64,000 nucleotides of DNA from a virus. The position numbers were made by a program, and so were the translations under genes. The first letter of the stretch is position 1. Every line of letters begins with the position of its first letter. The stretch is taken from positions 1 to 64,000 of IMG/VR virus record IMGVR_UViG_3300024313_000004, one strand, 5' to 3'. Positions 3,972 to 44,082 of the stretch are shown here, one piece after another. Below the pieces are notes generated by a model. That model was not told the DNA's origin, searched no databases, and saw only the letters and a program-made list of their open reading frames with translations.

Positions 3972-4014
3972 AGTATGATATTTATACTTATTTTTAGATT
4001 TTTGTTTTAAAAAA

Positions 4015-4530
4015 TTATTTAAATTCTATTGCTATCATTTTAATCTTTTCTGGAATTCTTCCTTCTGATATGTCTTCCTTTTCTATCTGTAATCTTTTGT
4101 ATCCACCCGAGGAGTTGTCTCCTATGTAGTATGCTAAGTTGAAAATATATCCGAGTTCTTCCGTCATGTATGATACGTATGCCTGCACGTCTGCTTCTAT
4201 GCTTTTCCAGTCGAAGCTGTTGTTGTCGAAGCTGTATTCTACTGTGGATCCTGTGAATATCCTCACTAACATCGACTTAAAAAATTGAATCTGCATACCC
4301 ATGTCTCTTATTGGAAGAAGGAGTTCCATTGTATCATCTTCAAATGATTCGATAGATTCTTTTACCAATCTATATTTTAAAAGTGGTTTTCCATTTACGG
4401 TTATATCACCTTTTGAATTCTTTCCTATTTTTTTAACAAGAGTTTTTTTATTTTTAAATCTACCACCAAGAATTGTATCACCAACCTTAATAGGTATTTT
4501 TATGTCTTCGAATTTTTTAATATATTTCAT
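4015..4530 (-). CDS. Two-module hypothetical protein with capsid-targeting-like N-terminus
   Basis: MKYIKKFED; IKVGDTILGGRFKNKK module, then KES, then a second module in visibly GC-richer DNA. Confidence 0.6.
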   Translation of the reverse strand: MKYIKKFEDIKIPIKVGDTILGGRFKNKKTLVKKIGKNSKGDITVNGKPLLKYRLVKESIESFEDDTMELLLPIRDMGMQIQFFKSMLVRIFTGSTVEYSFDNNSFDWKSIEADVQAYVSYMTEELGYIFNLAYYIGDNSSGGYKRLQIEKEDISEGRIPEKIKMIAIEFK

Positions 4531-41430: not shown

Positions 41431-42898
41431 TTATATACCTCCAAAGCCATTGAATATATCCATTACGACTGACAATCTCTCAGTTATTTCTGGCATTCCC
41501 AACGGTTCGATAATCTTATTTATCGGTGCCAAAATACACTTAGCGAATTGAATATCATAATTTATTTCAGGTGCAATCTCAATAGGATAAGAACCTCTGA
41601 TATATGCAAATATATCACCGTTATGTGTATCTTTACAATAATAATATTTTATCTTTGTTCCTGATTTTATAAACTCATATTTTGTTTGTAATAGTTTATT
41701 TTGATTTAATAAGTAATTATGATAAGCACTTGCCTTAACTGCAAAGTGTGCTCCATTTACAAACTTTAATGGTAATGATTTATCGTCAATTACTTTAGCA
41801 TCATAGTTCGAACAAGAAGATTGCATCGCGATATCGTCGATATCTGCTAACTCAAATTCTTTACGTAATGCTTTTATGAGTTTAAGTAAATCTTTGATGT
41901 TGAATGTATTTGAATTCTCAAATAAATATTTAACAATATTGATAATTTTCTCCCTAGCGAAAAGTGGTGTTGATGATCTAACAAGTTCCACTCCTTTTGG
42001 GTATAAGTATGATAATCTTTCATAAGGTATACCATCTTCAAAAGAAACATGTTGTATGTATTTCTTCTTAGCCAGAGATATAATAGATTCTGATATTCTT
42101 TCTAACTCAAAATCTTCTTTATTATCTACTCCAAATCCTGCAGCATAATCTTCTAAACACTGTTTGAAATATCCACCATATCTGTAATGGTCCATTCCGT
42201 GTATATAGTCTACTTCTCTTGACCAGTTCCATTTTACATCACAGGTAAGAGAACCACTTGAAACTAAGTTCATAAAATCTCTATCTTTTATGAATAAACC
42301 ATCTACAATTACCATTTCATAGTCCATTGTTAAAAGCTTTTCAAAGTCATTATAGTTTTCTGCACCACCAAGATAATTTGGATTATCAGTATTGATTTTT
42401 TTTGGTGATAAAACGATAAATTTCTTATCAATCTCACTTAATGATTTTGGATTTAGAAATAAATTCTCCCATTCTGAATGTTCTATTGCAGGTAGGAATG
42501 ATACAAATAAAGAATCGGTATCTGCATATATTGATACTGCTTCATTATTATTTATCTGTGTAACATTTCTAATACAAAGATTTTTATGGAATTCTTCATC
42601 TAAATGCCATTGATTATACCAATAATCTTCATTTACCATATCCATAGTTTTTGTTAAATCCCTTCCTTGTGCTGTAATTGTGCCTGCAACATGATTATTA
42701 TATAATATGAAGTAGGCTGTCGCGAATGCTCCGTAAGAGCCGTTCAGTACTAATTTTAGTCTTTTTGCCCCCAGTAAAAAATACCGGGGGCTAAACAAGA
42801 GCGAGCTGAAGTGCGTTGTAGTATTCCGCTTCCTTCTTTAGCTCGCTCGCTTGTTTTTTTAAAGACTCGATTTTTGATATTTTATCTTCTCGTGTCAT
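41431..42898 (-). CDS. polB: Family B DNA polymerase, C-terminal subunit (gp43B-like), interrupted by a 40-nt coding gap near the 5' end
   Basis: ATG 42898 gives MTREDKISKIESLKKQASELKKEAEYYNALQLAL[V*]; +1 frame gives KLVLNGSYG (motif B), YADTDS (motif C), KKKY, KGVE..RSSTP. Confidence 0.85.
42760..42800 (-). other. GC-rich RNA hairpin making up the coding gap in polB
   Basis: mRNA UCUUGUUUA-GCCCCCGGUA-UUUUU-UACUGGGGGC-AAAAAGA; 10-bp core with one G-U, extended by a 7-bp basal stem. Confidence 0.85.
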
Positions 42899-42978
42899 AT
42901 AATTTATATACTTTTTATTAAATAAGTTCTAAATGGAACTTATACTATTTGATATATATTTAAAATAGTATTATTTAT

Positions 42979-44082
42979 ATGGTAAAGGAGAAAGAAGTTT
43001 TAATTAAAATAAACATTAGAAATAGAGTTCATTTTGAAAGATTGGGGTATTCTATTGATGATGAGATATATGTTTCGGTTGTTGATTTGTTACCTGGTTC
43101 TAAATTTAAAGTCACTGCAATTTGTAAAATTTGTGAATCAGAAAATATACTACCATATAGTAAATATCTGGTAAATAAAAACAGAAATGGTAAAAATTAC
43201 TATTCTTGCTTTCGTTGTAAAACACATGTTAAGGAAAAAACTTGTATGGAAAGATATGGTGTAAAATCATATTCAATGACTAATGAATTTAGGGTATCAG
43301 AAAGTATAAAATGGAGAGGTATTAAAAAGGGTGGAGATAAAGGTGAAAAAACAATGTTGGAAAGGTATGGTGTAACATCATATTTTAAAACCGATAAGAG
43401 TAAAGAATATAATAGTAAATGGATGTCATCTGATGAGTTTAAAGAGAAGTCTAAGAGGACGATGTTGGAAAGATATGGAGTAGATCACTATTCAAAATCA
43501 AGTAAATTCAAAGAGTATATATCCTTAAATAAGGATCATATAGTTAATAAAATTAAAGAAACGTTTATTAATAAATATGGTGTGGATAACGCATTTAAAT
43601 TAGGAAGTTATAAAAAGAAAATGTTAGATTGTAGAGATAGTATTGAATGTAGTAAAAGGGAAACTTGTATGGAAAGGTATGGTGTGGATAATGTATCAAA
43701 AGTGGATATTATTAAAGAAAAGAGGAAAAAAACATTATTAGGTAATGGTCAAATTGTACCGGATGATAAAATAACCTCCTGGGAACTTTATAAAAAAAAT
43801 GTTAGAAATATGACTAAACGGAATAAAAAAATACTATATGAAGTATGGAACGGATTTGACTATTATGATAATGAATTTATTAAAGGTTATCTATCTCATA
43901 CACATACACACCGGTTTTATCCGACGATTGATCATAAAACTTCGGTATATTTTGGGTTTATAAATAAAATAGATCCAAATATAATTGGATCTATTGAAAA
44001 TTTATGCATAACCAAAAGGTTCATAAATTCAACTAAATCTAAAATGTGTGAAGAAGAGTTTTTAAAAATATTAAAGTCTTAA
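42979..44082 (+). mobile_element. Free-standing HNH homing-endonuclease-like gene with (E/K)RYGV repeats
   Basis: N-terminal CKIC/CFRC Zn motif, repeated ERYGV/KYGV units, C-terminal TIDH...NL...NSTK; opposite strand between polB and clamp. Confidence 0.7.

Follow-up and report, generated by a model that had tools for sequence, protein, structure and literature searches.

A stretch of 64,000 nucleotides (nt) from a virus (IMG/VR record IMGVR_UViG_3300024313_000004, positions 1 to 64,000; here termed the window) carries on its minus strand the C-terminal gene of a family B DNA polymerase, and this gene is interrupted at polymerase motif B by a coding gap of 40 nt. The translated codons just upstream of the gap form a long RNA stem, which is probably a working part of a ribosome-hopping device like that of phage T4 gene 60. 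We consider it reasonably likely that this stem serves as the 5' stem-loop in a cassette for translational bypassing, in which a homing-endonuclease cassette would have put an untranslatable 40-nt hairpin into motif B and would supply the first 34 codons of the gene. Reading starts at the ATG at 42898 and runs for 34 codons to Gln-Leu-Ala-Leu, followed by GUU and a UAG stop codon (42793 to 42791); the polymerase reading resumes in the +1 frame at the motif B lysine codon, at 42756 (minus strand). The features of the interrupted gene are as follows.

42797 to 42898, minus strand: leader exon of the polymerase C-terminal gene, 34 codons from the ATG at 42898, lying in the mobile cassette.
42797 to 42799, minus strand: putative take-off codon CUU (Leu34), within the outer 3' arm of the stem; take-off here restores the motif B spacing.
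42757 to 42796, minus strand: coding gap of 40 nt, comprising GUU, the UAG stop, a hairpin, an A-rich spacer and the putative landing codon CUA (42759 to 42757).
42767 to 42791, minus strand: gap hairpin of 10 base pairs (bp) with a 5-nt loop, starting one base past the end of the 5' stem (pair probability, 0.98 to 1.0).
41431 to 42756, minus strand: remaining part of the C-terminal gene of the family B DNA polymerase, beginning with the lysine of motif B (Pfam DNA_pol_B, E = 4.6e-16).

The initial annotation of this DNA had described a stem of 15 bp with a 2-nt bulge, extended by inner pairs and reaching into the gap, and all of these elements were found. On the minus strand, 42856 to 42840 is complementary to 42807 to 42793, with the bulge drawable as either CG (42849 to 42848) or GC (42850 to 42849). 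Inner pairs GAAG/CUUC (42836 to 42833 with 42811 to 42808) and GCG/CGC (42829 to 42827 with 42815 to 42813) bring the stem to 22 bp. The 3' arm, as read directly in the sequence, holds the take-off codon CUU (42799 to 42797) and the GUUU of the gap start (42796 to 42793), and the U at 42793 doubles as the first base of the UAG stop codon. The stem is made up of the following parts.

42850 to 42856, minus strand: outer 5' arm AAACAAG, Lys-Gln codons, A-rich (pair probability, 0.32 to 0.97).
42840 to 42847, minus strand: core 5' arm AGCGAGCU, Ala-Ser-Glu-Leu codons, rare codons (pair probability, 0.95 to 1.0), covarying with the core 3' arm.
42808 to 42839, minus strand: apical part with the inner GAAG/CUUC and GCG/CGC pairs and the loop, as in the minimum free energy (MFE) structure.
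42800 to 42807, minus strand: core 3' arm AGCUCGCU, motif B Gln-Leu-Ala codons, ending on the base that directly precedes the take-off codon (from the fold and covariation).
42793 to 42799, minus strand: outer 3' arm CUUGUUU, made up of the take-off codon and the 4 nt that open the gap (from the fold and pair probabilities).

Folding with ViennaRNA returned this helix in both the MFE and the centroid structure. A 71-nt piece folded at -25.6 kcal/mol (z = -4.6), and 0 of 200 dinucleotide shuffles were as good; in a 161-nt context, a value of -53.4 kcal/mol (z = -7.3) was obtained with the gap hairpin folded alongside. Pair probabilities were 0.95 to 1.0 in the core and 0.32 to 0.97 in the outer part. 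The stem was also compared with synonymous controls. Recoding by the codon usage of the window gave -7.9 ± 2.9 kcal/mol, with 0 of 2,000 recoded sequences as good as the observed one, and permutation of synonymous codons within the leader gave -12.6 ± 3.0 kcal/mol, with 1 of 2,000 as good. The codons of the arms are scarce in the genome (AGC, 2% of Ser; CUC, 2% of Leu; GCG, 10% of Ala; CAG, 15% of Gln). An island of raised guanine and cytosine (GC) content, previously placed at about 42720 to 42860, is real (0.40 to 0.46 versus ∼0.27 around it) and is slightly wider than had been claimed, extending over ∼42650 to 42850. The gap hairpin is the sole C5...G5 hairpin in the window.

Viral contigs were scanned with the C-terminal protein, and 78 loci were recovered, all of which open with the same kind of short leader. 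The gene reads straight through motif B in 26 of these loci (19 distinct sequences), while 30 loci (22 distinct sequences) have a gap at the window's site, with an insert of 38 to 44 nt and a C5...G5 hairpin that persists across alleles despite differing stem sequences. Over a 70-nt region, the mean MFE was -24.4 kcal/mol in the 22 distinct gap-bearing alleles and -7.7 kcal/mol in the 19 distinct gapless alleles, with no overlap between the two groups. The numbers of pairs formed in the 12-bp core were 10.8 and 5.4, respectively, and the GC content of the leader was 0.358 versus 0.289. Metagenomes were scanned with a pattern that specified only the hairpin, spacer, landing codon and downstream codons and was hence blind to the leader; 19 further distinct alleles were detected, and the stem was present in 19 of 19 (mean, -23.9 kcal/mol). 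The stem was found in 41 of 41 distinct alleles with a gap at the window's site and in 0 of 19 gapless alleles. The initial annotation had tied the GC-rich codons and the stem to the insert, and the gapless homologues had neither. The structure exists and occurs only with the gap.

Conservation differed along the stem. The outer 7 bp, which pair into the gap, were the least conserved, being missing in the alleles with a GCU take-off codon and in locus L071; the partner of the outer 5' arm is the take-off codon plus the U-rich gap start, and this arm was conserved in Leu-take-off alleles only. The placement of the stem is constant: counted from the first base of the take-off codon, its 3' end falls at -5 to +8 nt in each of the six gap classes, and in most alleles the gap hairpin begins 5 to 6 nt after that codon. 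A second, short helix was observed at the start of the gene: AUGAC (42898 to 42894) can pair with GUCAU in codons 11 to 13 (∼42866 to 42862, minus strand) in gap-bearing alleles only (-4.0 versus +0.1 kcal/mol), and GAGUC occurs in 17 of the 22 gap-bearing alleles and in none of the 19 gapless ones. This helix could lower ribosome loading or may be a relic of the longer stem of cassettes at downstream sites. Pairing of GAGUCA (codons 11 and 12) with sequence past the landing site was looked for in the window-site class and was not conserved.

Covariation was assessed for 19 pairs in a set of 38 distinct alleles. The proportion of paired cells was 84.2%, compared to 80.4% in shuffled alignments and at most 47.4% when the partner was slid by 1 to 3 columns. 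Two-sided changes were present in 9 of 19 pairs (5.1 shuffled; at most 5 slid), and 42 cells were altered on both sides (19.6 shuffled; at most 8 slid). The covariation score of 0.177 was not reached in any of 500 shuffles (0.108 ± 0.009) and was at most 0.090 for slid partners. Covariation, named at the outset as a means of checking the stem in homologues, was thus present with the gap, while the same structure imposed on gapless alleles was paired in 44.9% of cells, a value equal to that of shuffles. In one example, the Gln codon covaries at its third base with the first position of a Leu codon that lies 35 nt upstream (19 alleles have C-G and 12 have U-A). Loci L034, L123, L051 and L112 had altered amino acids in both arms and retained 9 to 12 contiguous pairs. 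Entropy at third codon positions was 0.81 bits in paired columns and 1.24 bits in the loop for gap-bearing alleles, compared to 1.40 and 1.21 bits, respectively, for gapless alleles. Synonymous sites are constrained solely in the arms and solely in gap-bearing alleles; the structure is under selection.

Joining the reading after CUU (42799 to 42797) to the codon after 42757 gave the motif B spacing and sequence of the 19 distinct gapless alleles. In the class at the window's site, take-off is predicted either from a Leu codon to CUA or from the preceding GCU to GCU or GCA. At five insertion sites, the landing codon matches the take-off codon, namely, CUN/CUA, GCU/GCU or GCA and, at three sites described below, GUU/GUA or GUU, UCU/UCA and UAC/UAC; the window's own pair, CUU/CUA, is synonymous and not identical. 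A stop codon in the landing frame was present in 17 of 22 gaps, and 11 of 22 had stops in all three frames. In most class A loci, a landing-frame UGA stands right before the landing codon (spacers end in AAAUGA or GAUGA), and the window has AGA in this place (42760 to 42762 region). Five near-complete relatives (genomes G001 to G005, 436 to 597 kb; loci L082 to L091) encode the N-terminal half of the polymerase as a separate gene 100 to 170 kb away, with an internal TAA in two of the N-terminal matches, and have one C-terminal gene per genome. The split polymerase is the normal state of the clade and, because each near-complete relative has a single C-terminal gene, the interrupted gene must work. 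Taken together, the frame closures, the matching flanking codons and the sole C-terminal gene in these relatives predict that the gap must be skipped. Searches with PF03104 and phrog_262 did not find the N-terminal half on the window's contig, a result that is uninformative for a contig 23% complete.

RNA contigs from four seawater metatranscriptomes span 41439 to 42863-42900 and end in the intergenic region, as expected of transcripts. At the contig level, all of them kept the gap and none had a joint. The RNA retains the gap, which argues against efficient excision from the bulk of the RNA; these contig-level data leave room for a minor spliced form. A translational mechanism is therefore favored over efficient RNA excision. 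A GT...AG intron was considered and rejected, as canonical boundaries would define an intron of 36 or 47 nt, and removal of either length leaves the frame unrestored. A search of Rfam gave a single sub-threshold chance match. No cassette-specific nascent-peptide signal was visible, the leader peptide being nearly the same in gapless alleles, and there are no tRNA genes in the window by which the Leu tRNA involved could be named.

The positions of these elements suggest how the stem could act. The choice of leader codons would serve the pairing of Ala-Ser-Glu-Leu codons with the Gln-Leu-Ala codons, the latter running up to the take-off codon. Relative to that codon, the core 3' arm is at -8 to -1, the 5' arm at -57 to -41, the gap hairpin at +8 to +32 and the landing codon at +40. 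A translating ribosome would melt the stem. Once CUU occupied the P site, the 3' arm would lie within the ribosome, the 5' arm would be free behind it and the GC-rich gap hairpin would be at the mRNA entrance. The stem could re-form only during the slide, when the emerging 3' arm would zip to the 5' arm over ∼19 to 22 bp (roughly -25 kcal/mol), and this zipping would conceal the take-off codon, stop backward sliding and draw the mRNA forward. The gap hairpin, one base on, would refold likewise until the peptidyl-tRNA re-paired at CUA, and translation would restart at the motif B lysine. As the stem ends at +6, one base short of the hairpin, pairing of the exiting mRNA could run nearly unbroken from about -12 to +32. 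Bypassing itself and a role of the stem as a zipper on the exit side are what we infer from this arrangement. We put forward more tentatively, as a possibility somewhat short of even, that the 5' stem and the gap hairpin form one continuous exit zipper with the take-off codon inside its first helix, and that refolding of this zipper would actively pull that codon away from the peptidyl-tRNA and drive the slide over all 40 nt.

The leader is adjoined upstream by a divergent gene.

42979 to 44082, plus strand: homing-endonuclease-like gene, matching PHROG homing-endonuclease families, with homologues annotated as HNH or homing endonuclease.

This gene also matches DUF7487. Its homologues adjoin gap-bearing alleles only and never any gapless allele, and the gene is lost or a remnant in about a third of the gap-bearing loci. 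In a polymerase tree built from the sequence beyond residue 40, the gap state required 16 changes, at least 13 of which were forced by well-supported branches. The polymerase nearest to that of the window belongs to L003 (85% protein identity), a locus that lacks the gap, the stem and the endonuclease gene and has leader DNA only 65% identical to that of the window. In contrast, L073, with a polymerase of 69% protein identity, has leader DNA that is 94% identical and a nearly identical gap. As the leader and gap match those of L073 and not those of L003, the endonuclease gene makes up, on these comparisons, a single mobile unit together with the gap and the 102-nt leader, and the downstream end of this unit is at the landing site. 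The earlier suggestion that the exon had co-evolved with the insert, and that a fresh random insertion was thus unlikely, stands in part: the covariation and the contrasts with gapless alleles and shuffles indicate that the leader exon belongs with the insert, but the exon did not adapt in place to the insert, since the whole leader is mobile. The endonuclease gene (42990 to 44082, plus strand) was covered by contigs in 4 of 4 RNA libraries; it appears to be transcribed, so that it is probably no dead remnant, and 42874 to 42903 (plus strand) holds a strong promoter-like site.

Further hairpin gaps were detected in relatives a few codons downstream of the window's site: after Lys-Leu-Val (L031 and L049), after Asn-Gly-Ser (L036) and after the motif B Tyr (L074 to L077), with matching flanking codons (GUU/GUA or GUU, UCU/UCA and UAC/UAC, respectively). 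These are independent sites within ∼30 nt of motif B. In L077, the take-off UAC is replaced by AAC, which would swap the Tyr of the motif, and this may be a decaying copy or a sequencing error. A separate class of gaps after the Tyr (class B; L016, L020, L027, L028, L029, L037, L050 and L070, at ∼3990 to 4060 in most loci) has AAC, AGC, GAC or UAA as the last gap codon, none of which matches the Tyr take-off codon, and landing would then depend on a near-cognate match or on spacing alone. Most downstream-site alleles have a longer stem, in which Glu-Ser-Leu-Lys codons pair with Leu-Asn-Gly-Ser codons and the 3' arm again reaches the take-off codon. These regions folded at -24.6 to -33.5 kcal/mol, compared to -17.3 kcal/mol for gapless regions of similar length, and in classes B, D and E the longer stem was 75% paired, compared to 55% in gapless alleles. 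RNAalifold gave no consensus structure for the mixed classes B, D and E, and the structure was instead built from individual folds. In L020 and L037, the gap hairpin (∼4000 to 4050) is 19 bp long and extends at its base over the Tyr take-off codon and the stop codon, an arrangement shared with T4 gene 60. In L049, L052, L058 and L065, the polymerase match picks up only at residue 81, ∼1.9 kb past motif B, which points to a second large insertion in the C-terminal gene, possibly another mobile element, an intron or an intein.

Several points weigh against a bypass device driven by the upstream stem. Bypassing in this cassette family is so far a prediction. The landing codon of class B is unlike the Tyr take-off codon, which is awkward for simple re-pairing of the anticodon, and in the window allele the landing frame is open across the gap, such that for this allele a +1 shift adding ∼13 residues would be possible. 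The upstream stems of L020 and L037 are weak (-17.1 and -13.9 kcal/mol), and this suggests that their long gap hairpin over the take-off codon and a strong upstream stem can stand in for each other. For the longer stem, covariation in the small set of classes B, D and E was not above that of shuffles, and covariation is therefore claimed only for the window's site. Homologues of gene 60 do not conserve the 5' stem-loop, and so provide a weak precedent for its importance (bioRxiv 10.1101/2022.08.31.505936). The count of wobble pairs in the core, 10 G-U versus 17 A-C cells, fixes no strand, and a DNA-level or antisense structure stays compatible with it. Finally, the leader moves horizontally with the cassette, so the repeated gains of the gap are not independent origins of the stem; independent support therefore comes only from the compensating changes and the contrast at synonymous sites. 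An independent-pairs test on the polymerase tree gave 7 pairs in the same direction and 0 against (median p ∼0.016) but was not counted as independent evidence because the leader travels with the cassette.

Of the alternative explanations, ribosome pacing survives best. The stem would then act before take-off or between ribosomes, slowing an approaching ribosome or refolding to delay the next one, and the leading ribosome would bypass unpushed, with the structures behind it unmelted. The stem lies wholly in translated codons, every ribosome must unwind it, and the start-region helix specific to gap-bearing alleles would cut ribosome loading; ribosome spacing is also considered important for the T4 5' stem-loop (bioRxiv 10.1101/2024.12.09.627546). 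However, a pacing element could sit anywhere upstream, and the constant placement of the 3' arm, ending at or over the take-off codon, would be left unexplained. Pacing is compatible with a 5' stem-loop that promotes bypassing and not exclusive of it, and on balance we regard it as unlikely. Less probable still is hitch-hiking, whereby a functionless stem would have been copied with the cassette in endonuclease-driven homing through co-conversion from a common ancestor. Such copying would fit the near identity of the leaders of the window and L073 despite their diverged polymerases, and also the 13 to 16 or more changes of gap state on the polymerase tree. Ancestry, however, predicts conservation and not the two-sided changes that preserved pairing in 9 pairs and 42 cells, and it predicts equal synonymous conservation in arms and loop. 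As the loop is as diverged as in gapless alleles yet the arms are constrained, shared ancestry alone is insufficient, and we consider hitch-hiking improbable.

The repeat could alternatively act in DNA, as a cruciform or a feature recognized by the endonuclease or in recombination, or as a fold of an antisense RNA upstream of the endonuclease gene. The wobble count does not favor the sense strand, and the repeat lies 120 to 190 nt upstream of the divergent endonuclease gene. Against this, transcription from the best promoter-like site for that gene (42874 to 42903, plus strand) would start beyond the repeat, the repeat is always positioned by the take-off codon, which is a translational landmark, and we know of no homing mechanism that needs such a repeat; this explanation is very improbable. 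We give equally little credence to RNA processing, in which the stem and hairpin would mark the 40 nt for excision and religation as a tiny intron with no bypassing. Gaps of 36 to 48 nt with a conserved hairpin would fit a structure-guided cut, as would the class B landing codons that differ from the take-off codons, but the contigs from the four RNA runs carry the gap with no joint, the matching codons that flank the gap at five sites are not needed for excision and no Rfam family matched. The two-state switch suggested in the initial annotation, in which toggling between the outer stem and the base of the gap hairpin would govern bypassing, is the least credible, since both helices coexist in the MFE and centroid structures: although the outer 3' arm takes in the 4 nt at the gap start and stops a single base short of the hairpin, 42796 to 42793 pair upstream with a probability of 0.81 to 0.97 and downstream with at most 0.03, the hairpin itself forms at 0.98 to 1.0 and the outer pairing is absent from the GCU-take-off alleles and L071.

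The closest known system is the 5' stem-loop of T4 gene 60 (Samatova 2014 and Chen 2015, as summarized in bioRxiv 10.1101/2022.08.31.505936; Wills et al., bioRxiv 10.1101/2024.12.09.627546). In T4, this stem-loop forms on the mRNA leaving the ribosome and has been proposed as the driver of the first bypass steps (bioRxiv 10.1101/2022.08.31.505936; 10.1101/2024.12.09.627546). Both systems have a hairpin of translated codons just 5' of the take-off codon, a short leader (46 codons in T4 and 34 in the polymerase cassette) after a split made by a homing-endonuclease cassette, and then a take-off hairpin that includes a stop codon; the landing codon matches the take-off codon in T4 and, among polymerase cassettes, at five insertion sites but not in class B. 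They differ in the host gene (topoisomerase versus DNA polymerase), the gap (50 versus 40 nt) and the codons (GGA/GGA versus CUU/CUA). The T4 stem is weak (∼-10.8 kcal/mol in our own fold) and ends ∼12 nt before GGA, whereas the polymerase stem has ∼-25 kcal/mol and overlaps the take-off codon; this codon is inside the hairpin in T4 and 5 to 6 nt before the gap hairpin in the polymerase cassette. The 5' stem is conserved and covarying in polymerase cassettes at the window's site and unconserved among gene 60 homologues. Wills et al. proposed that pairing of exiting mRNA is a driver in T4, where continuous pairing is not evident in the sequence (bioRxiv 10.1101/2024.12.09.627546).

The MobA element of gene 60 homologues in myovirus topoisomerase genes (Manning and Atkins, bioRxiv 10.1101/2022.08.31.505936) is likewise a mobile endonuclease cassette with repeated gap insertion at one conserved site, and both it and the polymerase cassette exhibit hit-and-run loss of the endonuclease gene. 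The MobA family has no sequence relationship to the polymerase cassette, a comparison in which the endonuclease was not set directly against intact MobA, and it is reported in topoisomerase genes only, with upstream structures that vary freely (bioRxiv 10.1101/2022.08.31.505936). The T4/MobA family is defined by the 39/60 junction of the topoisomerase II large subunit and a 50-nt GGA...GGA gap; a family B polymerase with a 40-nt CUU...CUA gap lies outside it. The 'byp' elements of Magnusiomyces capitatus mitochondria are also short (27 to 55 nt) hairpin inserts, resembling GC clusters, that have matching end codons and are skipped in translation, but according to the summary in bioRxiv 10.1101/2022.08.31.505936 they are mitochondrial, occur at many sites per genome and have no endonuclease cassette, and that summary reports no conserved upstream stem. 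In a full-text literature search, topoisomerase genes were the only ones for which bypass cassettes had been reported, and no account of such a cassette in a huge-phage polymerase gene was found. Exit-side helices are also able to affect mRNA movement elsewhere, as upstream hairpins that refold behind the ribosome modulate frameshifting, for example, the 5' attenuator hairpin of coronaviruses. Such attenuator hairpins act on one-base shifts, usually reduce -1 frameshifting and involve no crossing of a coding gap. The best reading of the present stem would be that of a strong counterpart of the T4 gene 60 5' stem-loop, abutting the take-off codon and the gap hairpin.

The contig to which the window belongs is an IMG/VR virus contig of 134.6 kb with a completeness estimate of 23%. 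The nearest named relatives of its virus are uncultured huge phages of 634 to 735 kb, and polymerase matches further off are to phages of Bacteroidota; a giant-virus origin, first hinted at by some DUF families, was dropped because the relatives found were huge phages. The gene at 41431 to 42756 matched the PHROG DNA polymerase profile over positions 517 to 839 of 856.

Long-range bypassing in bacteria has essentially one studied example, T4 gene 60, and the role of its 5' stem-loop is disputed, as it helps in vitro yet is unconserved in homologues. The polymerase gene of huge aquatic phages carries an unrelated cassette family in which selection is most clearly seen on the upstream stem. Its alleles provide dozens of natural variants for testing whether pairing of exiting mRNA drives bypassing and, if this were true, it would be the first natural system in which such pairing is demonstrably selected as a driver of bypassing. 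For annotation, a rare-codon stem together with a GC hairpin in motif B offers a signature for polymerase genes that would otherwise be called broken.

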